Positions 28,142-62,658 of a stretch of 64,000 nucleotides of DNA are shown here, piece by piece. The stretch lies in assembly GCA_963707635.1 (NCBI GenBank), contig OY970173.1:2208001-2272000 (forward strand), written 5' to 3'. Origin of the DNA: Candidatus Latescibacterota bacterium. GTDB taxonomy: Bacteria; Krumholzibacteriota; Krumholzibacteriia; WVZY01; JAKEHA01. A program made the translations under genes and the position numbers. A model generated the notes under the pieces. The model did not search any database and was not told where the DNA came from. It worked only from the letters and a program-made list of their open reading frames with translations. How positions within the stretch are numbered: the first letter of the stretch is position 1; every line of letters starts with the position of its first letter.

Positions 28142-28699
28142 CTACTTGTACAACGCCTTGATCGCGCCCCAGGTGCTCGTCTCCGTGGACACGATCCCTT
28201 CCACGACGAACTCGAGCGAGTAGGACTGAATGATGGCGTTCGTCTGCTGGATGACGAAACAGTAGTCGCCTGGATCGAGCTGAGGCATGTCCAACGCGTA
28301 TGTCGTCACCGATCGATCTACAAAGCGAGGCAGGATATCGCTGCCGAGATCCCCAAACTCGACGTGAATGCCGGCCAGAAAGAAAGCGTTCGTGGACCCG
28401 CTCGGGATATAGCTCGTCGTTCCCGCGTTGAACGCGGCGAAACTGAGGTTGTCCGGCGAATACACGAGCAGGTTCAACCCGCTGAGCACCTGATTCGCGC
28501 CGATGGTGAACCGCAGGTAGTCCCGGTCCCCGGACGTGGTCGTCCCGATGACCGTGTTCCCGCCCAGCGCAAATGCCAGCAGCGTCGGCGCTGCGTTATT
28601 GCTCGAGAGGTCCCCGTTGACCGACTCGTCGTGAACGACGGCAGCACGTGCGGGCGCCGCAAGAGCCGCCAACAGGGCAACAATCGCAAAGGTCTTCAT
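28142..28699 (-). CDS. Secreted protein with C-terminal STWGAIKALYK tail (paralog 1)
   Basis: Sec signal peptide (ARA|A), DES.NGDLS beta-rich domain, 185 aa, AAGGAG RBS. Confidence 0.88.
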   Translation of the reverse strand: MKTFAIVALLAALAAPARAAVVHDESVNGDLSSNNAAPTLLAFALGGNTVIGTTTSGDRDYLRFTIGANQVLSGLNLLVYSPDNLSFAAFNAGTTSYIPSGSTNAFFLAGIHVEFGDLGSDILPRFVDRSVTTYALDMPQLDPGDYCFVIQQTNAIIQSYSLEFVVEGIVSTETSTWGAIKALYK

Positions 28700-28813
28700 C
28701 GTAACGCTCCTTGGTGTGTGGACGGGGGCTAATCGCACGAGAGAAGGTGCACTCCACAATCCCGGTCCGCTGTCCGGGCCATGCCCCGAGCTCGGCCTCG
28801 GGCTGACCGCGAC

Positions 28814-28847
28814 ATCATAGCAGGTTTCTGGTCACTTTTGGAAGTGA
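28814..28847 (-). promoter_or_regulatory. Promoter and palindromic operator of paralog 1
   Basis: TTCCAA-N18-TATGAT with TG extension; inverted repeat TCACTT-N4-AAGTGA at 28832-28847 over the -35. Confidence 0.55.
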
Positions 28848-28898
28848 ACCCTTGTGAATGTGCGGTGCGGGTCGACGAGGACGGGTCTGTCCAGGCGC

Positions 28899-28932
28899 CC
28901 GGCGCCGAGTGGACGTCACCACCCGGCGTCGG
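28899..28932 (-). terminator. GC-rich hairpin downstream of paralog 2
   Basis: CCGACGCCGGGTGG-loop-CCACTCGGCGCCGG, homologous to 28040-28072. Confidence 0.5.
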
Positions 28933-28995
28933 CGAAATCATCGAGGCCCCGGTGGCGGGACACCCACTCGTCGTCCCGTGGGCGCCGGGGGCGCG

Positions 28996-29553
28996 TTACT
29001 TGTACAGCGCCTTGACGGCACCCCAGGTAGAGTTCTCCGTGGGCAGGGTTCCCTCCACGATGAATTCGAGGGAATAGTACTGAATGATGGCGTTCAGTTG
29101 CTGGATGATGAAACAGTAATCACCGGGGCCGAGCTTCGGTTCAGTCAACGCATACGTCGTCACCGACCGGTCCACGAAGCGCGGCAGGATATCGGTTCCT
29201 GCATCCGCACCCTCGACGTGGATACCGGCCAGGAAGAAAGCGTTCGTGGAACCGCTCGGGACGTAGCCCGTCGTGCCCGCGTTGAACGCGGCGAACCCGA
29301 GGTTGTTCGGCGAATATACCGGCAGGTTCAACCCGCTGAGCACCTGGCCCGGGGCGATCGTGAACCGGAGGAAGTCCCGGTCCCCGGACGTGGTCGTCCC
29401 GATGACGGTGTTCCCGCCCAGGGCAAACGCCAGCAGGGTCGGGGTCGCGGCAGTGCTCGAGAGGTCCCCGTTGATCGATTCGTCGTGGATCACGGCAGCG
29501 CTCGCGGGCGCCGCGAAAGCAGCCAGCAAGACAACAAGCGCACAGATTTTCAT
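28996..29553 (-). CDS. Secreted protein with C-terminal STWGAVKALYK tail (paralog 2)
   Basis: 185 aa, ungapped alignment to paralog 1 (about 80% identity by hand count), signal peptide ASA|A. Confidence 0.88.
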   Translation of the reverse strand: MKICALVVLLAAFAAPASAAVIHDESINGDLSSTAATPTLLAFALGGNTVIGTTTSGDRDFLRFTIAPGQVLSGLNLPVYSPNNLGFAAFNAGTTGYVPSGSTNAFFLAGIHVEGADAGTDILPRFVDRSVTTYALTEPKLGPGDYCFIIQQLNAIIQYYSLEFIVEGTLPTENSTWGAVKALYK

Positions 29554-38581: not shown

Positions 38582-39043
38582 CTAATACCCCTGCTTGAAG
38601 AGTCTGCTCGCTTGGACTTCCAGCATTGCCGAGCTTTCCTTGGCACTCGCCCCTTCGGAGTCGATGGTATAGTCGAAGTCGCGAAACTCCTTGCTATAGC
38701 CGGGGCGAAACCGCACGCGATCGAACGCGATGTCGTACTTGTATTTGTTTTCCTCATAATTTCCAGAGCTATAGAGATCCGAATAGTCGGCCAGCGATTT
38801 CACGTTGTTGTCGGCGTCGATGGTCGCCGGCGCCTTGGCCAGGAGGCGAAGCCAGTTGATGGCCTCTTCCGTTCCTGCGTCCGACGCGTTGAACGAGCGC
38901 GTGTGCGTATACTCGTTGTGCGCGATGCGCTTCTCCGAGGTGGCCACCATCGCGATGACGGCGGCGGCCACGGTGAGCCCGGTGATGAAGAACAGCGCGG
39001 TCACCAGCGCGCTACCCCTGTCGTTTCGAGTCATGAGCGACAT
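38582..39043 (-). CDS. pilX: PilX-like minor pilin
   Basis: Class III signal RG|SALVTAL without E5, SFNASDAG.EEA; directly upstream of pilY1. Confidence 0.78.
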   Translation of the reverse strand: MSLMTRNDRGSALVTALFFITGLTVAAAVIAMVATSEKRIAHNEYTHTRSFNASDAGTEEAINWLRLLAKAPATIDADNNVKSLADYSDLYSSGNYEENKYKYDIAFDRVRFRPGYSKEFRDFDYTIDSEGASAKESSAMLEVQASRLFKQGY

Positions 39044-39067
39044 AAACCTACTCCTTGGCGCTTCTGT

Positions 39068-39670
39068 CTAGTCGTTGCGCAGCGTCACGCGCGTGTCCGC
39101 GGTAACCTCGCCGCCGCGGTCGGTTTGTGTGGTCAGCGTGATGCCGATCGACTTGACGCGGTCCAGGTCGGCGGCGGCGATCGGTGTTGCCAGCGGCTGA
39201 TCGGTCGCGTCGAAATACGTGAACGAAAAACTGGACACGTTTCGGATCATGACCTGCGGACCCGTCCCGGGGTCGCGAATGACCGCCTGCTGGCCGGCGT
39301 CGTAGTAGTAGAGGACGTTTTCCGAAGGCTCTACCGTTTCGATGGCGCGGTCGCCGTCGTAGTCCGCCTGTACGTGCGCGCTGTCCGCCTTCGCTGCGAG
39401 CAGCGGCGCGAAACCCGCAAGTCCGGGGTCACACCCGGCCGTCCGCAGCTCGGTGACCATGACCGAGAGTCCGACGCGCGCGTTCATCTGCTGGCCCGCC
39501 CGCACTGCGGTTGTGCCGTAGAGACGGTTGGAGGAGAAGAACACGCCGTTCAAGACCGCCAGCACAATCCCGAAGATCATTACGGCCATGATGAGCTCGA
39601 CGAGCGTCACGCCCTTTTCGCCCAACCGGGCGAGGCCGCTTCCGTGGCATATGGTTGATTTCTTGTTCAT
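39068..39670 (-). CDS. pilW: PilW-like minor pilin
   Basis: KG|VTLVELIMAV, QQMNAR..L..M.TELRTAG.DP, C-terminal VTLRN. Confidence 0.82.
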   Translation of the reverse strand: MNKKSTICHGSGLARLGEKGVTLVELIMAVMIFGIVLAVLNGVFFSSNRLYGTTAVRAGQQMNARVGLSVMVTELRTAGCDPGLAGFAPLLAAKADSAHVQADYDGDRAIETVEPSENVLYYYDAGQQAVIRDPGTGPQVMIRNVSSFSFTYFDATDQPLATPIAAADLDRVKSIGITLTTQTDRGGEVTADTRVTLRND

Positions 39671-40044
39671 CGCATCGACAACCGGTTGATGACTGCTATG
39701 CTCATGGGCCGGCCACGCTCGGTCCAGTTGACCGTGACGGTGACCTGGTCGAGCCCCAGGGAAACGTTCTGCACGCTTTGTATCCATTGATAGTTGCCGA
39801 CAACTCCCGTGTCGGTAGCCGCAACCCCGAAGCCCAACGTCTTCGCGGTCTCCATCTGGAGCTGGGCCAGCGCGAGAGCCTCGGTCTGGCGCCCCGAATC
39901 GACCACTTCCTGCTGCGCCCGCGTCTGTACGAAGGCGAGCGGCAGCAATCCGATCGCCAGGACGACGAGCACCACCATCAGCTCGACGAGGCTGAAACCG
40001 CGCTCGTCGCCCTGCCGAATCATGCGGGAATGATCAGTACGCAT
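39667..40044 (-). CDS. pilV: PilV-like minor pilin
   Basis: RG|FSLVELMVVLVVLAIGLL, ALALAQ..ME, VTVTVNW. Confidence 0.8.
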   Translation of the reverse strand: MRTDHSRMIRQGDERGFSLVELMVVLVVLAIGLLPLAFVQTRAQQEVVDSGRQTEALALAQLQMETAKTLGFGVAATDTGVVGNYQWIQSVQNVSLGLDQVTVTVNWTERGRPMSIAVINRLSMR

Positions 40045-40471
40045 GTTCGACCGATCCGGTGGGGAGCACGCTGACGCCCTTGGTTCCGGCGTTGCCGGAC
40101 ATGGTGATGTTGGCGGCATCCGAGAGTCCCCACGCGTAGAAGTTCGGATTCACGTCGGCCGCGAAGGCGACCCCGCTGGGCGCCGTAATGGTCCGGACCA
40201 CGCTGCCGTCCGACGTATCCACGATGCTGTACGAGTCCGGCTGGAACTGCATTGAGAAGGTCCGCCGGTTCGAGATGGCCAGCGACCGCGCGTAGTAGAT
40301 GTCGGCGATCATCTGGTTGCGTGCTCCGTCCAGGCGGGTCCGTTTGAGGTAGCCCGAGAACGCCGGAACCGCGATCGCGGTCATGATCCCGATGACGGCG
40401 ACCACCACCATGATCTCGGTGAGCGTGTATCCCGCTCGCCCCAAATTGCCAGACTTCGGACGCATACTCAT
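40034..40471 (-). CDS. fimT: FimT/FimU (GspH-like) minor pilin
   Basis: AG|YTLTEIMVVVAVIGI..AIAVP, DIYYARSLAI. Confidence 0.82.
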   Translation of the reverse strand: MSMRPKSGNLGRAGYTLTEIMVVVAVIGIMTAIAVPAFSGYLKRTRLDGARNQMIADIYYARSLAISNRRTFSMQFQPDSYSIVDTSDGSVVRTITAPSGVAFAADVNPNFYAWGLSDAANITMSGNAGTKGVSVLPTGSVEHAY

Positions 40472-40486
40472 CACGGGCTGGGTCGC

Positions 40487-40502
40487 TGCAAGCGATGTGC
40501 CA
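40487..40502 (-). promoter_or_regulatory. Sigma54 promoter of the minor pilin-pilY1 operon
   Basis: TGGCAC-ATCGC-TTGCA, perfect -24/-12 consensus. Confidence 0.8.
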
Positions 40503-40655
40503 CGTTTCTGGGGGCGCCCGGGGCCCCAACCCACCCCAACCGACAACCCCCGGCCGCACCGGCGCCGGCCCTCCGGAAGCGCGTGCGCCATCTGGCCACG
40601 CATCCTGCCCGCCCGGCTCAGCCAGGCCACTGGCTCACGCCGGCCCGGAAACGCA

Positions 40656-40686
40656 AGGCGGCGGAGCGCTATGCACTCCGCCGCCT
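40656..40686 (-). terminator. Hairpin downstream of pilQ
   Basis: AGGCGGCGGAG...CTCCGCCGCCT stem followed by TGCGTTT on the minus strand. Confidence 0.55.
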
Positions 40687-40727
40687 GGCACGAACCCACC
40701 CACGGGTTTCACTCTCGGAGAACGGGC

Positions 40728-42671
40728 CTACCCCACCAGTTTCGGGGTCACGAAGATGATCAGCTCGCGCTTCTGCTTGGTCTTCGACTCGTAGCGGAAG
40801 AGCGGGCCGAGCAGCGGCACGTCCTTGAGGACCGGCACGCCGGAGCGCAGCGAGCTTTCGACCTCGCTGATCAGGCCGCCGATGACCGCCGTCTCGCCGT
40901 TGCCGACGACGACGCGGGTATCGGCTTCCTGCAGGCTGATGATCACGCCACCCTGAACCGTCGCCTGCGAGGACAGGTCCGACAGCTCCGGATGGAGGTC
41001 CATGGTGATGGTTCCGTCGTCGTTGACGTGCGGAGTCACCATCAGGATGACGCCGATCTTCTTCAACTCGGTGATCGGATTACCCGCCTCGTCACTGACG
41101 ATGAGGGGAATCTCCTTGCCGACCATGATCCGGGCCTGCTGGTTGTCGGCCGTGGTCACGTGCGGGTTGGAGACGATGTTGGCCTTGTTGTCCTTCTCGA
41201 GCGCCTCGAGCACCAGATTCAACTCGCCCCACGACTGCACGGTTCCGGCGCGAAGCGTTCCAAATGGATCCGCCAGGCGCTGGCCGGTCACGATGTCGCC
41301 GGCCCCGTTGTTGCCGAACTGGAGATTCATCGCTTCCCAGTTCACGCCGAGTTCACGGGTGGCCTGGTGGTCGACGTCGACCATCTTGGCCACGATCTCC
41401 ACCTGGCGAAGCTTCTGGTCCATATCCTTGATGATCTGAACCAGCCGGTCGATATTCGCCGGAACCTCGGCGATCACGACGGAGTTTGTTCCCTTCTCCG
41501 CCTCGACCTTGCCGCGCGGCGTGGTGCTCTTGCTCAACGCCTGCTTGACTTCGGTCGCGTTCAGGTAGTTCAGCTTGACCACCTGGGTGCGCAGCGACGC
41601 CATTTCCTCTTTCTTGCGCTCCACGGTGACGGCCTTGACTTCGTCCTCCTGGAGCTGGTCGACAGGGGCGACACGGATGATGCCGTAGTCTTCGCGCCAC
41701 CCGTACCCCTGGCTCTTGAGGATGGTGTCGAGCGCTTCCTTCCACGGCACGTTCTTCAGGTGAATGACCACCGCGCCCTCGACTTCGGGGCCGGCGATAA
41801 TGTTGACGCCCGAGAACTCGGAAACGCTGCGCAGCACCGTCTTGATGTCGGCGCCCTGGACGTCGATGGTCATGGCCTGATTGGACAGCGTGCTGCCGTA
41901 GACCGGAGTGGACATCTCGGCGGCAACGCGGGTCGTGTTCCGTGCCATGGCGATATCGTCCTTGGCGGGCACCGCCTCGTTCTCCGAGGGGGCCGGCCAC
42001 GCGTTCGAGAGCTCGTCATCCGCCGACGACGTCGCGGGCTGCGCCTGCCATTCGTCGGCCGCCGGCTGCGGCGCGGGCTCGACCGGCTTCGCTTCCGCTT
42101 CGGCCGGCTGGGGTGCGGCCTCGGCCGGCTGCGCGGGAGGCGTCGTCACCTCGGCGACCGAGTCGGCCGCCGGGGCGGGAGCCGCCGCGGGCGCCGCGCT
42201 CGCGGGGGCCGGCGCGGGAGCGGCAGTCGGCGCGTCGCCGAAGAGGCTCGCGCCCATGACCTCCGCCGTCTGCGAGAAGCTCACCTCGAGAGCGGTACCC
42301 CTGCGGGTCACCTTATAATGAGTGCCGTCCGCCAGCTCGAAGACGACTCGCGTCACCAGGTCGGGCTCGGACTTGAACTGGCTCGCGCGTATCGCGGTCA
42401 CGAGCTTGCCGTCCGCCGTCAGCGTCTGGGGCTCGACCAGGTTACGCACGCCCACCAGATCAATCACCAGCCGCGAGGGCTCGGTCATCGTGTATTCCTG
42501 GTACTGGACGACGCCCGACGGGTTGATCGTGTAGGTCGTCGACGTCGGCGTCTGCGCGAGCTCGACCTTGTCGAGCTTCGTCACTTCGCCGCCGGCCACC
42601 GACGCCAGCGCGACCAGGCCCGCGACCAGCGTCGCGAGGATAGTCACTTGTATTCCAGACAGTCTTTTCAT
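40728..42671 (-). CDS. pilQ: Type IV pilus secretin PilQ with AMIN domain
   Basis: PSRLVIDL (AMIN), Pro/Ala linker, LKNVPWKEALD.IL, QVEIVAKMV, GETAVIGGL, GVPVLKDVPLLG.LF, ELIIFVTP. Confidence 0.95.
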   Translation of the reverse strand: MKRLSGIQVTILATLVAGLVALASVAGGEVTKLDKVELAQTPTSTTYTINPSGVVQYQEYTMTEPSRLVIDLVGVRNLVEPQTLTADGKLVTAIRASQFKSEPDLVTRVVFELADGTHYKVTRRGTALEVSFSQTAEVMGASLFGDAPTAAPAPAPASAAPAAAPAPAADSVAEVTTPPAQPAEAAPQPAEAEAKPVEPAPQPAADEWQAQPATSSADDELSNAWPAPSENEAVPAKDDIAMARNTTRVAAEMSTPVYGSTLSNQAMTIDVQGADIKTVLRSVSEFSGVNIIAGPEVEGAVVIHLKNVPWKEALDTILKSQGYGWREDYGIIRVAPVDQLQEDEVKAVTVERKKEEMASLRTQVVKLNYLNATEVKQALSKSTTPRGKVEAEKGTNSVVIAEVPANIDRLVQIIKDMDQKLRQVEIVAKMVDVDHQATRELGVNWEAMNLQFGNNGAGDIVTGQRLADPFGTLRAGTVQSWGELNLVLEALEKDNKANIVSNPHVTTADNQQARIMVGKEIPLIVSDEAGNPITELKKIGVILMVTPHVNDDGTITMDLHPELSDLSSQATVQGGVIISLQEADTRVVVGNGETAVIGGLISEVESSLRSGVPVLKDVPLLGPLFRYESKTKQKRELIIFVTPKLVG

Positions 42672-42685
42672 CGTTCCACTCCTTC

Positions 42686-43183
42686 TTATCGACCAATGAG
42701 GCGCAGTCTGACTGTCGTCGTCTGACCGAAGTTGGTGACGCGAGCCACCAGTTCATCTTCGCCGATCGAAACCACGCTGCCGTTGTGCACGCGGTCACCG
42801 ACGCGCAGAATGTAGCTGTACCCCTGCGTGTCCTCGAGCAGGGCAAAGCGATCCACTTCGCCACGCACGACACCGACCAGTTGCACGGCGCTCAAGTTGA
42901 CCAGGTCCATCTTGTCGCTCTGGTTGAAGGCGCCCTCCACCAGCGACCGGAACGGATCCCGATGGTTGAATGCATCGTAGTAGTAGAGGTTTTCACGCAG
43001 GACGACCTTGCCCTCGGCGTTGACCGTGGGCGTCACCGTCGCGGGGCTGCCCGGAGCCGGCACCGCCGTCGAGTCCGCGGGCGCGCTCACCTGCGCGCGC
43101 ACCAGTACCGCGAAGGACGCGGCGCAGAGGAACGCGGCGGCAATGCTAGTCGTTGCTCGCGTGCTGATCATTGACGGTCTCAT
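42686..43183 (-). CDS. pilP: PilP-like protein
   Basis: Y...RDPF.SL, LVGVV, ALLED.QG..Y..RVGD; located between pilO and pilQ. Confidence 0.8.
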   Translation of the reverse strand: MRPSMISTRATTSIAAAFLCAASFAVLVRAQVSAPADSTAVPAPGSPATVTPTVNAEGKVVLRENLYYYDAFNHRDPFRSLVEGAFNQSDKMDLVNLSAVQLVGVVRGEVDRFALLEDTQGYSYILRVGDRVHNGSVVSIGEDELVARVTNFGQTTTVRLRLIGR

Positions 43184-43823
43184 TGGTAACACCTCCGAGC
43201 AGCGTATAGGCGGTGAGGGTGAATTTCGCTTCCACCGTGTTGTTGGAGCGGCTGGCGACGTTCTTGGTCGCGTCGTCCGCCTTCTTCTTGCTGGTGCTGG
43301 TCTTCTTCTTCCCGCCCTTCAACTCCTTGGGCTGGCCCAGAACCATGTCCGACACGTTCACGATGCGATCCATGTTGGCGAGGCGGCCGATGAAGGATCC
43401 CACCTGGTGGTAGTTGCCCCGCACGGTCACCGCGATCGGGTGCTCGGAATGGAATTCCTTGGTGATGACCGCCTTGGGCTCGAACAGCGCGAATTCGACC
43501 CCGGCGCGGCTTCCCGCCATGGTCACCTGCCGCAGCAGTTCGGGCATTTCCTTCTCTTCGGGGAGGAGCTCCTGCGCCGCGAGCCACTGATCGTGGAGGC
43601 GCTCATACTCCGCCTCCAGCCGCGCGAGGTCGCCGACAACCTTGCGCGCTTTCTCTACCTCGGCCGCGAGGCGCTCGTGCTCGACTTCGAGCTGCGCGAT
43701 CTTCGCCTTGCGCGCCGGGTAGCTGAACGGCAGGAACGAGGTACCGAAGTACACGTATCCCGCGGCGATCAACGCGACCACGCCGATTGCGATTTTTTGT
43801 GTCTTTGGATCTTTGAGGCTCAT
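43146..43823 (-). CDS. pilO: Type IV pilus assembly protein PilO
   Basis: TM plus coiled coil, LPEEKEMPELL, GNYHQVGSF...LANMDRIVNV. Confidence 0.92.
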   Translation of the reverse strand: MSLKDPKTQKIAIGVVALIAAGYVYFGTSFLPFSYPARKAKIAQLEVEHERLAAEVEKARKVVGDLARLEAEYERLHDQWLAAQELLPEEKEMPELLRQVTMAGSRAGVEFALFEPKAVITKEFHSEHPIAVTVRGNYHQVGSFIGRLANMDRIVNVSDMVLGQPKELKGGKKKTSTSKKKADDATKNVASRSNNTVEAKFTLTAYTLLGGVTNETVNDQHASND

Positions 43824-43887
43824 GGTTACCCTTCCCTCTATGCCTGGTCGGCGGTCCGACACCGCCGTTCGGTGTCGTGCATCCGGT

Positions 43888-44448
43888 TCAGTCCACCAGT
43901 TTGGCGTTCAGATCGAACTTGACCACCCGGACGCTCTCGATCTCACCTTCCTGGGCGCGAACCAGCGCCACCTCCGCAAATCGGCCCGACCGCTCGAGAC
44001 TCGTCATCAGATCGGCGATGATGAAGTTCGAGAAGGTGACGCCTTCGATCGTCAGCTTCGAGCCGCCGCTTTCGCTAACTTCCGTGATCCAGCAGTTGTC
44101 GGGCAGCGTGCCCGCCAGGTCGTTCATCATGCGCACCCGCTGGTACCGGTCCTTGTCCAGCGCGGCGATGATGGCCAGGCGCTTGTTGACTTCCTCGCGC
44201 TCCGCCTGGAGCTTGCGGATCCGGGCGAGCTGCGGCGCCAGGCGCTCGGACTCTTCTTTGAGGGCCGCGATCTTGGTTTCGTATTCCGTGATCTTGCGGC
44301 TCTGGAGCACCCAGATTCCCGCCACGGCGCCGGCGTACACGAAGATACCGAGCGACACCCACAGGACGGCGCCACCCGATATCGTCGGGAGACTGATCTT
44401 GCGCCGCGACGATCGTTCGTCGCTCGGGAGCAGGTTGATGCGAATCAT
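43888..44448 (-). CDS. pilN: Type IV pilus assembly protein PilN
   Basis: MIRINLLP motif, TM, coiled coil, LPDNCWIT. Confidence 0.93.
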   Translation of the reverse strand: MIRINLLPSDERSSRRKISLPTISGGAVLWVSLGIFVYAGAVAGIWVLQSRKITEYETKIAALKEESERLAPQLARIRKLQAEREEVNKRLAIIAALDKDRYQRVRMMNDLAGTLPDNCWITEVSESGGSKLTIEGVTFSNFIIADLMTSLERSGRFAEVALVRAQEGEIESVRVVKFDLNAKLVD

Positions 44449-45510
44449 CTACTTCGCCTCCCTTCGCAGCGCGAGACCGAGCGCGACCGTGAGCAGGGGT
44501 CCGACCCGCTCCACGTCGTCGCCCGTACCATCGAACAACCCCTCGGCGCGCGCCACCTGGGCGACGGCCGTGTTGGTCTGAAAGTCGATGCCGTGCTTTT
44601 CGGAAAGAATCTCGCGCAGGAACGGCACACACGCGCCGCCGCCCGAGAGCGCGGCGTGGTCGATCCGATCCGCGTCGCCCGCGGTCTTGAGGAAGGCGAT
44701 CGACCGCTCGATTCCCATCGAGATGTCGTTGGCCGCCTCGGCGATGACCTGCCGGAACCGGTTCGGGTCGTCGATTTCAGCGGCACCGGAAAGCATGTTT
44801 TCCGCCTCTTCGAAGGTGACCCCGAGTTCGCGCTGCACGGCTTCGACGAACACGTTGCTGCCGACGCCGAGGTCGCGGGTAAAGTACGGGATGTTGTTTT
44901 GGATGATGTTGATGTTGGTCAGGTCGGAACCGATATTGACCAGGCCGATGACGCGGCCGGCGGTGCTGTGGCCGATCGATTCCACCGCGTTTTGAATCGC
45001 GAACGAGTCCACGTCGATGATCACCGGGGTGAGCCCGGCTTCCTTGACGATGGCCGCGTGCGCGTTGACCATTTCCTTCTTTGCGGCGACCAGCAGGATT
45101 TCCATCTGGTTGGCGCCGACGTCGTCGTTCAACACCTGAAAGTCGAGGCACACGTCGTCGATATCGAACGGAACGTGCTGCTCGGCCTCCCAGAAGATGG
45201 CCTCCTTGGCGTCGTCCGGGTTCATCTTGTCCATCACGACCTTCTTCACGATGACCGCGCGACCCGAGACGGCGGTGACGACGTTGCGGGTCGTGACCCC
45301 GGCCTTCGCCATGCATTCCTGGATGCCCTGGACGACAAGGCTCTGATCCATGATCTCGCCCTCGACGATCGCTTCGGTCGGCAGCTTCACGATTCCGTAC
45401 TTCGTGAGCACCGGCTCGTCGTTGGAGTGATCGATTTCGACGACCTTGATCAGGCTGGAACCGATGTCCAGCCCGACGGACGTCTTGCTCTTGCGCGAGA
45501 ACAACTTCAT
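44449..45510 (-). CDS. pilM: Type IV pilus assembly protein PilM
   Basis: VGLDIGSSLIK, EAEQHVPFDI, LVAAKKE, IDVDSFA, LSGGGA, ALGLALR. Confidence 0.95.
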   Translation of the reverse strand: MKLFSRKSKTSVGLDIGSSLIKVVEIDHSNDEPVLTKYGIVKLPTEAIVEGEIMDQSLVVQGIQECMAKAGVTTRNVVTAVSGRAVIVKKVVMDKMNPDDAKEAIFWEAEQHVPFDIDDVCLDFQVLNDDVGANQMEILLVAAKKEMVNAHAAIVKEAGLTPVIIDVDSFAIQNAVESIGHSTAGRVIGLVNIGSDLTNINIIQNNIPYFTRDLGVGSNVFVEAVQRELGVTFEEAENMLSGAAEIDDPNRFRQVIAEAANDISMGIERSIAFLKTAGDADRIDHAALSGGGACVPFLREILSEKHGIDFQTNTAVAQVARAEGLFDGTGDDVERVGPLLTVALGLALRREAK

Positions 45511-45613
45511 CACGTCACCAGCCTTGAGCTTTGTTCGGACGAACGACTCGCCCAGGTCGCACCGCTAAGTGAAACAGTCATGTGCAAATACAGCTTGCCG
45601 CGGGCGGCGATCT

Positions 45614-45629
45614 CGCAACAAACATGCCA
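45614..45629 (-). promoter_or_regulatory. Sigma54 promoter of pilMNOPQ
   Basis: TGGCAT-GTTTG-TTGCG. Confidence 0.75.
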
Positions 45630-45736
45630 GCGATGGGGCGAGCAACGGTGCATGCGTCCCCGTATTAACTGGCTATACCCGAACAAGTTATTGTCCGGCG
45701 TGCGCGTTTCGGCCCGCTCCGGGCGGGAGTCCGACG

Positions 45737-45747
45737 TGCAATCTGCA
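45737..45747. promoter_or_regulatory. Candidate enhancer-binding-protein site upstream of pilM
   Basis: TGCAATCTGCA, 108 bp upstream of the sigma54 element. Confidence 0.45.
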
Positions 45748-45762
45748 TCCGCGCGACGTGCA

Positions 45763-46548
45763 TTAGTGGGGGAGCCGGACCGCGCCCAGATAGAGGGCCA
45801 GCAGGCGTTCGCCGACGAACCACATGAGGCAGGCCGCCGGCGCGAGAAACGACCCGAACGCGACCGCGGTCTGCCCGTCGCCGCCTGCGCGGCGCATCAG
45901 GTAGACGCCATAGATGCTGCCCGCGGTCGCCGCCACCAGCAGCACCGCGAATACCATTTGCCAGCCGAGAAACGCCCCGATCATCGCCATGAGCTTCACG
46001 TCTCCCCCGCCCATCCCGTCGACCTTCCGCGCCGCCTTGTAGGCGAAAGCGATCAGGAGAATCAGCCCCGCCCCCACCGCCGAACCCACCAGCGAGTCGA
46101 CCACGGTGAGGTCGAGACAGACCAACGCGCCCACCCAGCCGAGCAGGGTGCCCCCGATCGAAAGGGGATCCGGGATGATCTGATGTTCCCAGTCGATGAA
46201 CGTGATCGCGATCATGATCGCGATGAAGGCGAACGCCCACGCACCCTCGAGGGTCCATCCGCCGAACGCCGTCGCGCCCACCGCGCCCACCCCGGTCAGC
46301 AGCTCCACCAGCGGGTAGCGAATCGGTATCTTCCAGCCGCACCGTCGACACCGGCCGCGGAGCAGCGCGTAGCTCGCCAGCGGCACGTTGTCGTACCACG
46401 CAATGGTCGCGCGGCACTGCGGGCACATCGACCGCCCTTTGACGACGGACTCGCCGCGGGGAACGCGATGGATGACCACGTTCAGGAAGCTCCCGATCAA
46501 CGCGCCCGGCAGAAAAGCGAGCAGTGGCCACCCCAGGTCAGCTGTCAT
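45763..46548 (-). CDS. pilD: Prepilin peptidase
   Basis: GSFLNVVIHRVP, CPQC, CRRC, RYPLVE, IDWEHQIIPD, MGGGDVKL, FGSFLA. Confidence 0.96.
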   Translation of the reverse strand: MTADLGWPLLAFLPGALIGSFLNVVIHRVPRGESVVKGRSMCPQCRATIAWYDNVPLASYALLRGRCRRCGWKIPIRYPLVELLTGVGAVGATAFGGWTLEGAWAFAFIAIMIAITFIDWEHQIIPDPLSIGGTLLGWVGALVCLDLTVVDSLVGSAVGAGLILLIAFAYKAARKVDGMGGGDVKLMAMIGAFLGWQMVFAVLLVAATAGSIYGVYLMRRAGGDGQTAVAFGSFLAPAACLMWFVGERLLALYLGAVRLPH

Positions 46549-47242
46549 GGCGCACCTCCGCTTTCGGCCCCCGATGGCCACGCGCGTCCTCGCCGCTGCG
46601 CAACCGCTCGATGTAGCGCTGGGCCAGCTCGCGCATGTACGGCTGGTCCGTCTCCCGGGCCAATTCTTCCCACATCCGGATCGACGTCTCCGTGTGCCCC
46701 GCCTTCGAGTAAACGAACGCGGCAAAACGGCGCGCCTGGTCGCGGCCGCCGGGCATCCGCCCGGCGAGCTCGAAGTAGCGCGCCGCCTGCTCGGCGTCGT
46801 GCGCCACCGTGTAATGCAGGAAACCGATTTCGAACGGAAGCTCCCAGTCCTCCGGGTTGTGCTCCATGCCCCGCTTCAGGACCGCAACGCCACGCTCCAG
46901 GTCGCCCATGTCCTGCGCCATGACCACGGCGCCGAACAGGTATGGAAAGATGAAGTGGGGGTCGAGCTCGGTGACGATCTCGATCAAGCCGTCGAAGTAG
47001 GCGAGGTCGTGCTCGCTCTTCGCGTAGCCGCCGTAGTACTGCACGGCCTGGAACCAGGTCAGGTCGGCCGCGATCTCGCGGTAACCGAGCGAGGTCTGTT
47101 CGACGAGCTTCCCCGACGGGAGGTAGAGATTGCCCTCCAGGTAAGGGCGCACCCGATATTCCTGCACGTGGGCGGTGGCGAGCGCGAACGCCGCCACGAC
47201 CCCCACGCCCAGGGGCACCGAGTTGCCGATCCGCAGGTGCAT
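46538..47242 (-). CDS. Pilus-associated TPR-like accessory protein (Myxococcus PilG / Geobacter Xap-like)
   Basis: ADLTWFQAVQYYG, TELDPHF..PY.FGA, L.RG..NP..W.LP..GF; follows the ABC pair next to pilA. Confidence 0.75.
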   Translation of the reverse strand: MHLRIGNSVPLGVGVVAAFALATAHVQEYRVRPYLEGNLYLPSGKLVEQTSLGYREIAADLTWFQAVQYYGGYAKSEHDLAYFDGLIEIVTELDPHFIFPYLFGAVVMAQDMGDLERGVAVLKRGMEHNPEDWELPFEIGFLHYTVAHDAEQAARYFELAGRMPGGRDQARRFAAFVYSKAGHTETSIRMWEELARETDQPYMRELAQRYIERLRSGEDARGHRGPKAEVRHDS

Positions 47243-48006
47243 TAGCTCACTTCCCGCGCCCGAAACACCAGCGTCGCCAGATAGAGCACGACCGCGGTGT
47301 AGGCCAGTGCGTACAGGGTCACGGAGGTCATGAAGCCGTCTAGCAACGGGAGGTTGTGCACGGCTTCGGTGCGGATGTTCAAGAGCTCGAGGTTCGGGAG
47401 CAGATAGTAGGCGCCGGTGGCAACGATGCGCGGAACCGTTCCACCCATGCGCTCGGCAAACACGAGCAAGTCCGACGCGAAGTGCCCGCTCACGACGCAC
47501 GCGATCGTGAACAGGGACCCCAGCAGTGGCGAGCTGAACGACGCGAAGAACGTGAGCAGCGCGGTCACCAGCGCGACCTCGAGCAGGGTCAGGTACACCG
47601 ATCGCAAAATGTTCGCCGTCACCGCCGCCCCGCTCAGAACGAGCACCAGAAAATGCACCGCGGCCATCATCACCACCACCATCGCGATGGTGACCACCGT
47701 CCCGGCGTACTTGCCGAGCACGAATTCGACGCGCGAAATCGGCTTGGCGAGCAGCGCCCGCTGAATGCCCCGTTCCTTCTCCATGTGGAAGGAGCCGGCG
47801 CCCAGTAGCACGATCAGCACCACCGCGAAGATCGAGACCGCCGCCAGGCCGATGTCGACGACGATCTTCTGCTGCGCCCCGACGGCGAGCGGCGAGAGCA
47901 CGTACGAGGAACCCATCAGCAGGGCCGCGAAAATCATGACCACCAGCAGGATGCGCTCCTGCAGGTAGCTTCGAACCGTGAATCGCGCCAGGGCGAGCAT
48001 GGGCAT
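47242..48006 (-). CDS. ABC transporter permease (Myxococcus PilI-like)
   Basis: Six TM segments, EKERG...LLAKPISR.EFVLGKY.G, YYLLPNL. Confidence 0.88.
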   Translation of the reverse strand: MPMLALARFTVRSYLQERILLVVMIFAALLMGSSYVLSPLAVGAQQKIVVDIGLAAVSIFAVVLIVLLGAGSFHMEKERGIQRALLAKPISRVEFVLGKYAGTVVTIAMVVVMMAAVHFLVLVLSGAAVTANILRSVYLTLLEVALVTALLTFFASFSSPLLGSLFTIACVVSGHFASDLLVFAERMGGTVPRIVATGAYYLLPNLELLNIRTEAVHNLPLLDGFMTSVTLYALAYTAVVLYLATLVFRAREVS

Positions 48007-48008
48007 GG

Positions 48009-48986
48009 TTACCGCCGGGTCAACGCCGGCTCGTGTTCTTCGGGCGCGGCGGCCGGGGTTGCGGTCGTCGCGCCGACGGCGTCGACAAACACGTCCTCCA
48101 GCCGCGTGCGCACGGGCCTCACTTCGACCACGCGTCCGTTGGACGCATACACGTCGGCGACCAGCGCCTTGAGCTTCTGGTCGCCGGCGCAGCGCACGAT
48201 CATCAAGTTGTCGCGCGTGAATACCGACTCGACGCCGTACTCGCGGGTGTGGAGCCGGCGTTCGTCGAGCCCGGCAATCGTGACTTCCATCTGGGTCGTG
48301 TGGTCGGAGTAGACCTCGTTGAGGTCGAGCACGCGGGCGATCCTGCCCCCGCTCAGGATGCCGACGCGGTCGCACACCGCTTCGACATCGGGAACGATGT
48401 GGGACGACATCATGATGGTCTTGCCCTGGGCCTTGAGCGCCACCAGGAGTTCGCGCAGCTGCTTGCGCCCGACCGGGTCGAGGCCGCTGTAGGGCTCGTC
48501 CAATAGCAGCAGAGCCGGGTCGTTCATTAACGCGGTGGCAATTCCGAGGCGCTGCCGCATCCCCTTCGAGTAGTGCTGGATGCGGATGGCGCGCTTTTCG
48601 CCCAGGCCGACCAGCTCGATCAACTCGTCCGCCCGCGCGCGCGACGCGCGCCGGGACATGCGAAACAGATCCCCGACCAGCACGAGCATGTCGGCCGCGT
48701 TGAGCTGTGGGTAGAGCCCGACCTCCTCGCCCAGGTAGCCGATCCGCGCCCGGGTGGCGGAAGTGGCGCCTTCCTTCCCGAAGATCATCACGCGACCCTG
48801 GTCGGGCCGGAGCAGACCGAGAATGACTCTCATGGTGGTCGACTTCCCCGCCCCGTTGTGACCGAGGAAGCCGTAGACCTCTCCCGGCTCGAGGGTCAGG
48901 TCGACGCCGCGCAGAACGGGCGTGCGGACACCCCAGAATCCGGCCCGGAAGGCCTTATGGATGCCGTGAAGTTCGAGAATGGGCAT
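48009..48986 (-). CDS. ABC transporter ATP-binding protein (Myxococcus PilH-like)
   Basis: GHNGAGKST, YSKGMRQR, LLLDEP.SGLDP.GR, SSH. Confidence 0.92.
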   Translation of the reverse strand: MPILELHGIHKAFRAGFWGVRTPVLRGVDLTLEPGEVYGFLGHNGAGKSTTMRVILGLLRPDQGRVMIFGKEGATSATRARIGYLGEEVGLYPQLNAADMLVLVGDLFRMSRRASRARADELIELVGLGEKRAIRIQHYSKGMRQRLGIATALMNDPALLLLDEPYSGLDPVGRKQLRELLVALKAQGKTIMMSSHIVPDVEAVCDRVGILSGGRIARVLDLNEVYSDHTTQMEVTIAGLDERRLHTREYGVESVFTRDNLMIVRCAGDQKLKALVADVYASNGRVVEVRPVRTRLEDVFVDAVGATTATPAAAPEEHEPALTRR

Positions 48987-49053
48987 GGTTGGTTTTCGGG
49001 CAAGGGCCCGCCTAAAGGTGCTAGTAGCAGGGTTCGTACCGATTCGCGCCCGG

Positions 49054-49091
49054 AAAAGACTCGGGGCGGGAGCCTTCCGGCTCCCGCCCCG
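49054..49091 (-). terminator. Intrinsic terminator after pilA
   Basis: CGGGGCGGGAGCC-GGAA-GGCTCCCGCCCCG perfect stem followed by AGTCTTTT on the minus strand. Confidence 0.8.
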
Positions 49092-49115
49092 TGTCGTTAC
49101 GCGTCGACGCCCGGC

Positions 49116-49556
49116 TTACTGGCCGCTCGTCAGCGTGATGATGACCGTCACGCCGTCTTTGCCCAGCGCGTCGATGATGTAACCGTCCCAGGTACCGTCA
49201 CCATCCGGGTCCTGAGGCTGGTAGCCAACCTGGCCAGCGCCTGCAGCCGCACCGTCGACCGGCGAGTCCGCAACGCGCGAGAACGGGTTGACCAGCTGCG
49301 CACCGGCCGGGAGCAGACCCGTGAGGGTCGTGCCACCGGGCGTCACGTCGGCAGCAACGTCGGCCGCGTACACGCCGTCGTTCTGGACCGAGAAGTCCTC
49401 GGCCGCAAGCTGCGTCGTGTGCGCGTTCGACTTCGCCGACGCCTCTTTGGCGCGCGACTGCATGTTGATGAAGTTCGGAATCGCGATGGCCGCGAGAATG
49501 CCGATGATCACAACGACGATCATCAGCTCGATGAGAGTGAAACCTTTGTTACGCAC
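49116..49556 (-). CDS. pilA: Type IVa major pilin
   Basis: MRNKG|FTLIELMIVVVIIGILAAIAIPNF; strong AGGAGG RBS; own sigma54 promoter and terminator; follows pilR. Confidence 0.93.
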   Translation of the reverse strand: MRNKGFTLIELMIVVVIIGILAAIAIPNFINMQSRAKEASAKSNAHTTQLAAEDFSVQNDGVYAADVAADVTPGGTTLTGLLPAGAQLVNPFSRVADSPVDGAAAGAGQVGYQPQDPDGDGTWDGYIIDALGKDGVTVIITLTSGQ

Positions 49557-49633
49557 TGGACAACCTCCTATTTAGCTGTTGCGCGTAGGGTGAGTAACCA
49601 TCCGGATCGTTCATCGATCCTGACCCACCAATG

Positions 49634-49649
49634 GGCAAGTCGCATGCCA
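49634..49649 (-). promoter_or_regulatory. Sigma54 promoter of pilA
   Basis: TGGCAT-GCGAC-TTGCC. Confidence 0.8.
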
Positions 49650-49765
49650 ACTCGATTCCTGCCCGCCCGCCTGTATCTCATGCTTCCTTCCTGTGTTGGC
49701 GACGCACCGCGCGTTCCCCACCGCCATCGCGCCGCCGCGCCGGGCGGAGCCGCCGCGCCCCGCGA

Positions 49766-49782
49766 CGCAAAGTGCAGTTTGC
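49766..49782. promoter_or_regulatory. Candidate PilR binding site upstream of pilA
   Basis: CGCAAAGTGCAGTTTGC (contains GCAAA-N6-TTTGC), 117 bp upstream of the sigma54 element. Confidence 0.5.
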
Positions 49783-49789
49783 CGGGAAG

Positions 49790-51196
49790 CTAGTCGCTCT
49801 CCACCAGCTCCTGCTCGTGTTCGTGCTCCTTGTCCATCTTGTCGAGCCCGTAGCGCTGTATCTTCCGGTAGAGGGTGGAGGCGTTGATCCCGAGGATCTG
49901 GCTTGCGCGCTTCTTCTGCCAGTTGGTGTCGTTGAGCACCTTGATCAGGTACTCCCGCTCGAGCTCGTCCAGGGTGACCTGGGCCCGTTCTGTGATCAGG
50001 TGGTTCGCACCCGACTCGCGCTGGCGGATCTTGTCGGGCAGCGACTCTACCGTGATGTGGGCCGACTCTTCGAGGATCACGGCCCGTTCGACCACGTTTT
50101 CCAGCTCGCGGACGTTGCCCGGCCAGTCGTAGCTCACCAGCACCTCCATGGCGTCCTTCGCGATTCCCTTCTGGCGTTCGCTGGGGAGGTCGTCGTTGTA
50201 CTTGTGCAGGAAGTGCTGCACCAGGAGCGGAATGTCGTCCCGGCGCTTGCGCAGCGGCGGGAGGTGGACCGGGATCACGTTCAGGCGGTAGTACAGGTCG
50301 GCCCGGAAACGCTCGAGCTTGATCGCCTTCTCCAGGTCGGCGTTGGTGGCGGCGACCAGGCGCACGTCCACCTTGATCGGGTTGGTGCCGCCGACCGGGA
50401 TCACCTCGCGCTCCTGGAGGACGCGGAGCAGCTTGACCTGAATCGTCGGGGAGGTTTCGCCGATCTCGTCCAGGAAGAACGTGCCGCCCTGGGCGACCTT
50501 GAACAGTCCTTCCTTGTCCCGAATCGCCCCGGTGAAGGAGCCCTTCACGTGACCGAACAGCTCGCTTTCGAGCAGGCTCTCCGGCAGCGCCCCGCAGTTG
50601 ATGCTAACGAACGGGCCGTTCGCGCGTGACGAGCGGTAGTGGATCGCCCGCGCGATCAGCTCCTTGCCGGTGCCGCTCTCGCCGTAGATCAGAATGGTGG
50701 ATTCGGTGTCGGCGACCTTGTCCACGAGCTGGAAGATCTTGTGCATCTCCTCGCTCTTGCCGATGATGGTCTTGAGGTCCCCGGACTTGCGCAGTTGCTT
50801 CTTGAGGAGCACGTTTTCGGTGCGCACCTTGCGCATGTCCAGCGCGTTTCGCACCACCATCTTGATTTCCTCGTTCTTGGCGTGCTTGATGAGATAGTGG
50901 AACGCGCCCTGGTTGACCGCCTCGATGGCCGTTTTCTGCGACGCGTACGCGGTCATGATCACCACCGGCATGGTCGGGTCGAGGCCCTTGATCTCCTTCA
51001 GCACCTCGATGCCGTCCATGCCGGTCATCTTGATGTCGGTCAGCACGACGTCGTACTTGCTCGCCGCGATTTCCTCAATCGCGCGCTTGCCGGTGTTGAC
51101 GGTGGTGATCTCGTAGCCCTCCTTTCGAAGCATGATCGAAAGGAACTGGCACATGCTCTTCTCGTCGTCGACTACAAGAATGCGCTCTCCGGCCAT
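49790..51196 (-). CDS. pilR: Sigma54-dependent response regulator PilR (NtrC family)
   Basis: REC domain, GESGTGKE, GSFTGA, FFLDEIG, FRADLYYRLNV, WPGNVRELEN, Fis HTH; between pilS and pilA. Confidence 0.93.
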   Translation of the reverse strand: MAGERILVVDDEKSMCQFLSIMLRKEGYEITTVNTGKRAIEEIAASKYDVVLTDIKMTGMDGIEVLKEIKGLDPTMPVVIMTAYASQKTAIEAVNQGAFHYLIKHAKNEEIKMVVRNALDMRKVRTENVLLKKQLRKSGDLKTIIGKSEEMHKIFQLVDKVADTESTILIYGESGTGKELIARAIHYRSSRANGPFVSINCGALPESLLESELFGHVKGSFTGAIRDKEGLFKVAQGGTFFLDEIGETSPTIQVKLLRVLQEREVIPVGGTNPIKVDVRLVAATNADLEKAIKLERFRADLYYRLNVIPVHLPPLRKRRDDIPLLVQHFLHKYNDDLPSERQKGIAKDAMEVLVSYDWPGNVRELENVVERAVILEESAHITVESLPDKIRQRESGANHLITERAQVTLDELEREYLIKVLNDTNWQKKRASQILGINASTLYRKIQRYGLDKMDKEHEHEQELVESD

Positions 51197-51225
51197 GAAG
51201 CACTTCCCTTTCTATGGGACTCGAG

Positions 51226-52938: not shown

Positions 52939-52950
52939 GTCGTTGCCGGC

Positions 52951-54165: not shown

Positions 54166-54202
54166 CGTCTAAACCCCCTCGGGATTTCCCGTGTTCGCCG
54201 TG

Positions 54203-55282: not shown

Positions 55283-55316
55283 GTACTCTCCTCGAGTCTC
55301 GCTTTGACGGGTTGCA

Positions 55317-60177: not shown

Positions 60178-62658
60178 TCAACGAATAACCGAGAAGCGGC
60201 CGCTGACGCGGCTCGCCCCGCTGGACACGCGCACGAAGTAGATGCCGGAGCTGGGAGGCGTGCGCACGACCACCACGTTGGTGCCGCGCGTGAGCCAGGC
60301 GGAGTCCTCGGCCACGCGCCGGCCCGCCACGTCGTAGACCTCGATCGACGCGCGTGTATCCCCGGGTGACTCCACCACCAGCCGGGCAGCGTCGCGCGCG
60401 GGGTTGGGGTAGATGCGATCGAGCCGGAGTGCAACCGCCGGTGTGCTCGCGCGCACCGTCTCTTCCCACAGCACGCGGGCGTTGGTCTCGTCGGTCAGGC
60501 GATACACGGCGGCGGCGACCGGCATGCGGTCGCGCGCTGAAAATCGCCACTCGCCCGCGACGCTGTCCAGCGCGAGGGTCACCGGCGCAACGCCGGCGGC
60601 GTCGATGCGCGAAAGCGAAAGCGTTTCGTGTTCGTAGTTCGCCAGCGCGCCCTGGATCACCACCTCGTCCCCGTCGATCGCCACGCTCGCGTTCGTCACC
60701 CACAGCGGGGTGAGATCGACGTCGAACAGCGCGATGATGTCGCCGATATAAGCGGTCCGCGTGCTGCCGCCGACACCGGTCGACCCCCCGAGGAGCACGG
60801 TGCTCATCACGAGCGCCGACGCGCCGGTCACGTTCGCGGTGGCGCGAACCGTCCCCGTCCCATCCTCGAGCAGCGCGGACGCGCTGCCGGGAATGAGCAC
60901 ACCCACCAGGCTGTCCGGGTTCCCCGGGTCGTAGGAAAAGGCATGATCGCCGGCGAGGCCGACCGTGCTCCACGAGGAGAGATTTCCCGTCGCGGCGCCG
61001 GGCGCGAACTGGACCCCGAACCGGTCCCAGAACGCCTGCTGCACCGGGTCGCCCGCGGCCAGCAGCCCGCCGAGGCGGCTCCCTTCCACGTACACGTCCC
61101 CGCCCGTGTCGATGAATCCCATGAGGGCCTGCAGCACGTCGGTCGACAGCGTGACGCCGGCGTCGTCGAAGCCGCCGACCACGAACACGCCCACGCATCC
61201 GCCGAGGCCCTCCGGAATCGTGTCGCTCACGACCACCGTCGCGCCGTTTTCGCGCAACGCGCCGGCGATCGGAGCTTCTTCGCCGTCGCGCGCCGCGAAC
61301 TCGTCGCCGACCCCGTCGAACGGGGCGCGGCACCCGTCCCGGTCCAGAACCAGCACCCACGCGCCCGGCGGAACCGGCGACCGTTCGAAGTCCGCACCCA
61401 GCGCGAACAGATTCGAGCTCGCCCCCTTGCTCACCTGATACACGACCAGCATCGAGTCGCACTGGCCCCAGTCGGCGATGGTGAGCGTGTCCTCGGGCGA
61501 AAGCGCGGGATACGACGTCGTGGCGGTGGTGCGGGACGCTCCCCGGAAGCGCATCACCGTGACCATCGAGGTCGCGAAGGGGTCGGGCACGACGCGCAAC
61601 CGCATCGCGTCGGTGTGGCCGTCGCCGTCGAAAAAGAAATAGTTCGCCCCCAGTTCGGCGGGGGGTTGACCGGAGAGATGGAGCTGGAACGGGTAACAGT
61701 CGCTGCGCTTCTCGCACGTGACCTCGCGGTAGGTCGCGCCGCGCGCATAGTGCGCGCCGTCGTCGCGTCTCCCCGTGAAGTAGTTGAACGTCCCGAATTC
61801 GACGAACTCCTCCAGGAAGGAGGTGTGGGCGGTCGCGGCCAGTGCCCCGTCGAATGCCTGCTGCGGGTTCGGGCCCGGGACGGCGGCGCCGTGCACCAGC
61901 GCCTCGCGCAGGATGGCGTCCCCGTGGCGCTCGGCCATGAAGATGGCCCACGGCGAGTTGGTGTAGAACTGGCTGAAGAGCCCGCGCCAGGGCCAGCGGA
62001 AGAACAGCTGCAGCGTCGCGATGTTCAGATGATAGTTGTACACCCGATCTTCCACCCAGGTGGACAGCATCTCCAGCATGCTGACACTCTCGTCGCGGTC
62101 GTAGCCCACCTGGATCACGTGATAGAACTCGTGGGCCGCGACGATGCGGCGACGCTCGACCCCCAGCGTGTCGAGGACCTCGACCCACGCCGTGGCGGAA
62201 TTCGCGTATGGAGCGCCGGTGACGGTTTCGATGACCGTGCGCCCGTAGATGCCGGATCCGATCTGTTCGGGCGTGCGCAGGTAGATGTCGGTACGCGCGT
62301 CGCCGCCCTCGGCCCCGTCCGAAGGAGGAACGAGGTGGCCGATGGTGTCGACCAGCACGCGGTATGTCAGTTCCGACGCGTCGCTGATGTCCTGAGCGTA
62401 GGCGGCGAGACCCGGGACGCTGTAGTGGACCAGAAAGTGGGTGGAGGCAATCGTGTTCGGGCCGGGGACCGGACGCACCAGCACCGTCGTGGAGGTCTTG
62501 AGCGCCGCCCCGAGCCCCTGCGCGAACCCGCACTGCGACTCCTGTCCCGGCAACGGAGTCAAAGGCGACTCGCCGTACCCGGCTGCCTGCGCCGGCCGCA
62601 CGAAATCGGTGCCGGGGAACATGGCGGCCAGCATCAGCGCGGTCAGCAGGTGTCGCAT
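60178..62658 (-). CDS. Secreted zinc metallopeptidase with T9SS type-A/FlgD-Ig-like C-terminal domain
   Basis: Signal peptide, HFLVHY, AAHEFYHVIQ (HExxH), E...TWVED; C-terminal YPNPAR..IEVYDVAGRRV..SGIYFVRV. Confidence 0.85.
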   Translation of the reverse strand: MRHLLTALMLAAMFPGTDFVRPAQAAGYGESPLTPLPGQESQCGFAQGLGAALKTSTTVLVRPVPGPNTIASTHFLVHYSVPGLAAYAQDISDASELTYRVLVDTIGHLVPPSDGAEGGDARTDIYLRTPEQIGSGIYGRTVIETVTGAPYANSATAWVEVLDTLGVERRRIVAAHEFYHVIQVGYDRDESVSMLEMLSTWVEDRVYNYHLNIATLQLFFRWPWRGLFSQFYTNSPWAIFMAERHGDAILREALVHGAAVPGPNPQQAFDGALAATAHTSFLEEFVEFGTFNYFTGRRDDGAHYARGATYREVTCEKRSDCYPFQLHLSGQPPAELGANYFFFDGDGHTDAMRLRVVPDPFATSMVTVMRFRGASRTTATTSYPALSPEDTLTIADWGQCDSMLVVYQVSKGASSNLFALGADFERSPVPPGAWVLVLDRDGCRAPFDGVGDEFAARDGEEAPIAGALRENGATVVVSDTIPEGLGGCVGVFVVGGFDDAGVTLSTDVLQALMGFIDTGGDVYVEGSRLGGLLAAGDPVQQAFWDRFGVQFAPGAATGNLSSWSTVGLAGDHAFSYDPGNPDSLVGVLIPGSASALLEDGTGTVRATANVTGASALVMSTVLLGGSTGVGGSTRTAYIGDIIALFDVDLTPLWVTNASVAIDGDEVVIQGALANYEHETLSLSRIDAAGVAPVTLALDSVAGEWRFSARDRMPVAAAVYRLTDETNARVLWEETVRASTPAVALRLDRIYPNPARDAARLVVESPGDTRASIEVYDVAGRRVAEDSAWLTRGTNVVVVRTPPSSGIYFVRVSSGASRVSGRFSVIR

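Follow-up and report, generated by a model that had tools for sequence, protein, structure and literature searches.

A short C-terminal tail on small exported proteins of Krumholzibacteria: a probable envelope-sorting tag with a second PorU-type protein, PorU-B, as its likely partner

The window analyzed here, a stretch of 64,000 nucleotides from a Candidatus Latescibacterota genome (contig OY970173.1, positions 2,208,001 to 2,272,000), carries a tandem pair of genes for exported proteins that is flanked by housekeeping genes (Table 1). Both open reading frames start with ATG, and their products end in ...YSLEFVVEGIVSTETSTWGAIKALYK and ...YSLEFIVEGTLPTENSTWGAVKALYK, respectively. The preliminary description of the locus had reported two 185-residue paralogs with a signal peptide and a shared C-terminal tail, and coordinates, lengths, signal peptides, and tails were all found to be correct. 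The conventional T9SS-type protein announced for the same window was likewise recovered, and its C-terminal domain (CTD) is of type A. The two paralogs matched no Pfam or NCBIfam model, even at an E-value of 5. Records of close homologs and of tail-bearing proteins are labelled Krumholzibacteria, Latescibacterota, and Eisenbacteria. Positions 38582–56999 of the window hold a gene cluster that, judged from sequence, resembles type IV pilus or type II secretion systems.

Table 1. Features of the window discussed in the text
Feature	Position	Strand	Remarks
Gene 1, exported protein of 185 aa: signal peptide, β-sandwich passenger, tail	28142..28699	−	
Gene 1, predicted Sec signal peptide, residues 1–19	28643..28699	−	From sequence, heuristic; A19 nearly invariant
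Gene 1, passenger domain, residues 20–167	28199..28642	−	Jelly roll, like pre-peptidase C-terminal/collagen-binding domains
Gene 1, tail, residues 168–185 and stop	28142..28198	−	P/V/T/E block in extended form, followed by amphipathic helix 176–184 (predicted)
Gene 2, tandem paralog of gene 1, 185 aa	28996..29553	−	80% identity
Gene 2, tail, residues 168–185 and stop	28996..29052	−	
MXAN_6640-family metalloprotease with conventional T9SS type A CTD (context)	60178..62658	−	TIGR04183, 41.9 bits

In the AlphaFold model of the gene 1 product, residues 20–168 form a confidently predicted β-sandwich (pLDDT >90), and structure comparison related this fold to pre-peptidase C-terminal and collagen-binding domains. 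The tail is loose, with a helix at residues 176–184 and a pLDDT of 52–57, and does not pack on the domain. An integral part of the domain can be ruled out as far as the models go, which leave the tail off the passenger as well as off the cohesin-fold domain described below. The mean hydrophobicity of the tail is about 0, and only nine residues, with a central lysine, extend from the tryptophan to the end; the hydrophobic moment did not separate helix (0.42) from strand (0.44). The 18-residue tail follows the consensus P-[VLT]-[APS]-[TV]-E-x-[ST]-T-W-G-x-[VI]-K-[AS]-L-Y-R. Its initial description as a near-invariant TWGA(I/V)KALYK was right in that the tail is conserved and has to be amended in the last residue, which is usually R (32/43). 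The preceding residues, taken for a variable linker, are in fact conserved and belong to the motif as P-[VL]-[APS]-[TV]-E.

We scanned the complete, single-contig genome for further tails. In six frames, 44 of the 49 matches to W-G-x-[IVLM]-K lay no more than nine residues from a stop. A tail profile gave 46 matches in 45 frames with 17–37 bits, followed by a next score of 10.9. Forty-four of the 46 matches were terminal, a position that is no independent test since the profile was seeded on terminal matches; the two internal ones lie at a frameshift within a tail and between copies of a repeated domain. By body sequence, the tail-bearing proteins of the genome fall into 27 BLAST clusters with domains that include CHRD, lamin-tail, plastocyanin-like, DUF7450, and PepA-like, and the 62 tail proteins collected outside the genome form 41 clusters. 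A signal-peptide heuristic was passed by 36/45 tail frames versus 620/1839 background genes, for which the rule was slightly stricter. Nine tail frames missed it, two with an N-terminus in another frame and two as orphan tail remnants, and at least two of the nine show a signal peptide by eye. The cargo is small, with a median of 209 and a maximum of 395 residues, compared to 558 for CTD cargo. The terminal position and the co-occurrence with signal peptides on unrelated domains were borne out; the tail is neither confined to one family nor generally internal or devoid of signal peptides, nor is it packed on the domain.

Several tail loci show individual features. At least two tail proteins are lipoprotein-like. 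Genome positions 371617–375435 encode three tail proteins whose signal peptides are lipoprotein-like, and here one frame contains an internal tail between two domain copies. At 180907–181659, a homolog with 55% identity to a tail protein stops after the linker (...SVPAQ), with no downstream tail in any frame. Two tail-bearing frames at 781960–793073 follow 3' ends of what we take to be a comM/YifB-like gene, which suggests the insertion of an island that split or duplicated this site. Frameshifts in tail genes and in the gene for PorU-B (see below) at 1186147–1189631, 1046182, and 2728170 are consistent with indel errors of long-read assembly.

The tail is widespread beyond this genome. A DNA pattern derived from it was positive in 31/31 relatives, 173/181 genomes of the phylum, 41/46 of an Eisenbacteria-labelled phylum, and 9/9 of a third phylum, and variant tails are present in several of the pattern-negative genomes. 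The reversed pattern gave a single match, in the Eisenbacteria-labelled phylum, and none in the other three sets. Third codon positions vary freely among the matches, which rules out a DNA repeat. Searches with tail proteins revealed no curated model of the tail in Pfam or NCBIfam, and we found no description of it in the openly available literature searched. An ESM Atlas search with the last 36 residues returned no usable match, and PDB sequence searches with profiles of the tail and of the cohesin-like family nothing significant.

The ends of the passenger domain proved to be exchangeable. Of 85 near homologs of the window proteins, 82 have the tail (79 by regular expression, three variants by eye), one has a T9SS CTD, and two have PEP-CTERM-like ends. 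The best 150 distant representatives, sorted into spot-checked regular-expression classes, end in PEP-CTERM-like segments (75), dockerin-like domains (11), the present tail (9), a short [YF]LP tail (6), CTD-like domains (4), or in other ends and fragments (45). The fusion to PEP-CTERM that the preliminary description had mentioned therefore exists, and the search for alternative tails it had proposed added dockerin, T9SS CTD, and [YF]LP ends. The six [YF]LP homologs end in [YF]-[LM]-P-hydrophobic plus 3–6 residues without a membrane helix, possibly a parallel sorting tag; this type of tail is typical of Chloroflexota. Within the genome, two neighboring copies of one domain (40% identity) differ in their ends, one having the tail and the other a CTD, and a cohesin-like family of tail cargo is also present in a CTD protein. 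Since the tail swaps on one domain with several modules known for surface attachment, it would most simply do the same job. Cluster diversity, terminal position, and module exchange thus support the proposed modular export or anchoring signal, and we consider it very probable that the tail is an envelope-sorting or attachment tag of some kind.

With respect to the machinery, the genome encodes SprA (found by TIGR04189), a PorU adjoining PorV, 102 matches to the CTD model TIGR04183, and seven PorV-family loci above the cut-off; searches of the genome for SprA_N and GldM/PorM families, run without positive controls, remained empty. A second PorU-like protein, designated PorU-B, is encoded at genome positions 2725491–2729585 and is split by a frameshift. 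PorU-B is whole in relatives, and comparison with a related contig showed an indel of one base at the site of the frameshift, which is probably an assembly error. The protein comprises a C25 domain, a propeptide, and its own CTD, and its best PDB match is PorU (6ZA2). It forms a clade of its own in a quick tree (42 rows, SH-aLRT 97), with the His/Cys pair H909 and C954 invariant in 41/41 sequences. In two frames, PorU-B scored 145.8 + 23.7 bits against NF033707 (cut-off 420) and 82.8 and 20.6 bits against NF052324 (PorU2; cut-off 450), where canonical PorU reached 158.9. By these scores, PorU-B falls outside the NCBIfam families PorU and PorU2. It is present in 128/128 genomes of the phylum (127 by one query, the last by profile) and in 42/46 Eisenbacteria-labelled genomes, with contig-end pieces in two more. 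Unlike canonical porU, its genes are not located beside porV. Four additional gingipain-like C25 proteins (1488890–1503448 and 2610723–2615438; three in tandem, three with CTDs) fall outside both PorU clades.

PorU-B belongs to an operon of conserved order, in which a gene for a dockerin-like protein is followed by cohesin-fold tail genes, one to five in number, and then by the PorU-B gene. Tail genes were found upstream of PorU-B in 16/20 order-level loci (three without, one cut), 17/20 loci of the phylum's other families (two without, one cut), 5/9 and 11/20 Eisenbacteria-labelled loci of a first and a second set (in the latter, two more at 16–17 kb, five cut, two without), and in the one locus of the third phylum. 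Nine informative PorU-B loci had no upstream tail genes. As a control, none of 20 canonical porU loci had tail genes upstream, and the background was 12/2586 genes. An operon tail-gene product is predicted to fold as a cohesin, and the neighboring dockerin-like gene is single-copy. In the operon, tail and dockerin genes are partly covered by RNA-library contigs from two near-identical data sets, which indicates presence only. The operon sits between genes that, from their sequences, we take to be MltG-like on one side and MurQ/AnmK/SpoIID-like on the other, and such peptidoglycan-recycling surroundings would fit a periplasmic role. The linkage of tail and PorU-B represents one inherited operon and not a series of independent events. 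What PorU-B is tied to by this linkage could be the cohesin-fold family or the dockerin protein instead of the tail. A Zixibacteria-labelled phylum has almost no tails and one PorU per genome, which we count in support of the pairing. The machinery, originally described as unknown, can be narrowed to a likely partner, and the second PorU-type C25 sortase, PorU-B, is the best candidate for the tail reader.

We give an even chance to the following course of events. Once Sec has exported the protein, its W-G-x-[VI]-K-x-L-Y-R helix would be recognized, and the small cargo would reach the surface through the T9SS, with one of the seven PorV-family barrels as a candidate shuttle. PorU-B, which carries its own CTD and is therefore probably surface-exposed, would bind the extended P-[VT]-[APS]-[TV]-E block and cut there. 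The cargo would then be released or attached to a glycolipid of the surface, in the manner of PorU and its CTD cargo. For the tail proteins, we thus infer cleavage, anchoring, and a location at the surface. The lipoprotein-like tail proteins need no second anchor and count against this course of events.

The cut site of PorU is given as T/E/D/N|G/A/S in one T9SS study (PMC10202324), and another labels the two sides the other way round (PMC5445135). The PorU-like cut motif T-[GAS]-[VIT] occurs in 26/70 CTD linkers versus 3/44 tails, and its small-residue position is Pro in 64/117 tails elsewhere. Pre-CTD linkers, in turn, scored higher on the N-terminal block of the tail than internal (p 2e-13) or shuffled (p 4e-4) controls. 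In a complex prediction, PorU-B (residues 245–1190) and a 33-residue tail reached a score of 0.01, which we count neither for nor against binding. Profile comparison with hhalign gave a probability of 0.2 for tail and T9SS CTD, that is, no homology, and of 0.05 for tail and dockerin, whose EF-hand repeats the tail lacks; the PEP-CTERM profile matched weakly, with a probability of 2.

The Zixibacteria-labelled phylum provides a second view on the role of PorU-B. All 41 genomes had a single PorU match, which was canonical in the eight checked. The tail pattern was positive in 13 of the 41, and ten of these loci were examined: eight contain one and the same small secreted protein and two are internal chance matches. 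The protein has ~140 residues and ends in ...STWGKIKALFK, and in 7/8 loci its gene lies directly behind that of a presumably Rex-like repressor. The tail is present in 66/66 homologs, 58 of which end in VKLSTWGKIKALFK, and it is more conserved than the body, with Asp at a position that in other tails is taken by a small residue or Pro. A single query without positive control did not find the dockerin-like protein in the 41 genomes. Since a conserved tail protein is retained in this phylum in the absence of PorU-B, the tail can matter even where PorU-B is missing.

This last observation also suits a different explanation, in which the tail is an uncut helix that docks non-covalently on a surface or periplasmic scaffold. 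This partner would be either the operon's cohesin/dockerin products or a lipid of the outer membrane, and PorU-B would serve only the scaffold. The poor match of the tails to the PorU cut site points in the same direction, as do the occurrence of the window domain with GC-type dockerins, the predicted cohesin fold of the operon's tail proteins beside a single-copy dockerin-like protein, and a predicted amphipathic core with W1, V4, L7, and Y8 on one face. We nevertheless regard docking as a tentative reading, given that the tail has no profile similarity to dockerin, that its N-terminal block resembles pre-CTD linkers, and that PorU-B has kept its catalytic pair. The near-invariance of W, G, and K points to a protein more than to a lipid as the reader.

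An unlikely reading is that a PorV-family shuttle or SprA recognizes the tail as a minimal signal for T9SS export, with processing by canonical PorU or none at all. Such a signal would account for the Zixibacteria-labelled protein and the lipoproteins, and it would fit the small cargo and the number of PorV-family loci. There are also precedents in two reports: the final 22 residues of the CTD are enough for secretion, with the lysines of motif E being important (PMC10202324), and specialized shuttles exist (PMC12618676). However, the tail has no profile similarity to the CTD end and is a predicted helix, whereas CTD signals are folded β-sandwiches (PMC11611037). Moreover, tail genes lie beside PorU-B, and none was seen at the seven PorV-family loci of the genome. 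A shortened PEP-CTERM signal processed by exosortase is very improbable: the genome does encode an exosortase, E-P-S-T-W resembles PEP-CTERM starts, and PEP-CTERM is frequent on the same passenger, but the tail has no transmembrane helix, the exosortase has its own PEP-CTERM target, and exosortase/archaeosortase occurs in 37/71 genomes of the phylum and in 0/26 of family f9, where 78/78 genomes have tails, so that exosortase is ruled out as the general tail reader. The exosortase gene (2034734–2035579) is part of an exopolysaccharide locus near a PorV-family gene, and its target (3019684–3020307) is the only one in the genome.

Among known systems, the T9SS type A CTD (TIGR04183, PF18962) with PorU (NF033707) and PorV is one of the closest to our preferred reading, sorting by the tail with PorU-B. 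Both combine a signal peptide and a C-terminal tag without transmembrane helix on unrelated cargo, are exchangeable on the same domains, have a similar Pro/Thr/Val linker in front, and use, in the case of the tail likely, a C25 His/Cys processor. The type A CTD is, however, a seven-stranded β-sandwich of ~70–80 residues, while the tail is short and predicted to be helical, its proteins do not match TIGR04183 or PF18962, its cargo is much smaller, and its likely partner belongs to a separate PorU clade. NF052324, the "putative T9SS sortase PorU2", is like PorU-B a second PorU relative, but PorU-B scores there below canonical PorU. Tripartite signals (PEP-CTERM/exosortase, LPXTG, GlyGly-CTERM, MYXO-CTERM, and WGxxGxxG-CTERM, NF038039) are similarly short and strictly terminal, with a Pro-rich start, a basic end, and common passenger families. 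The tail differs in lacking the hydrophobic membrane segment, the Arg cluster, exosortase co-occurrence, and any NCBIfam match, and in its invariant middle Lys. Cohesin–dockerin pairs, including the GC-type dockerin (NF041540), are portable C-terminal attachment modules as well, and the tail operon encodes cohesin-fold and dockerin-like proteins; here, however, the cohesin-fold proteins are themselves tail cargo.

The T9SS signals known are folded domains of types A–C (PMC10202324), and the short sorting signals described so far have a tripartite build that includes a membrane helix (Haft preprint, 10.1101/2023.06.07.544157). The tail is neither; it would work like a CTD-type tag without being a member of that class. 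As a tentative proposal, Krumholzibacteria, Eisenbacteria, and the third candidate phylum may possess a second branch of type IX secretion that is addressed by a peptide. A helix tag of 18 residues, which would be the shortest signal for surface sorting in bacteria that lacks a membrane helix, would direct small proteins to a sortase of their own, and this sortase would build a cohesin–dockerin surface scaffold. If true, this would be a third architecture for C-terminal sorting signals in prokaryotes and a named enzyme–substrate pair testable in vitro, and a peptide-sized tag with its sortase would be useful for protein ligation or display. In at least three uncultured phyla, tens of proteins per genome that now lack annotation would also gain a likely location at the surface.
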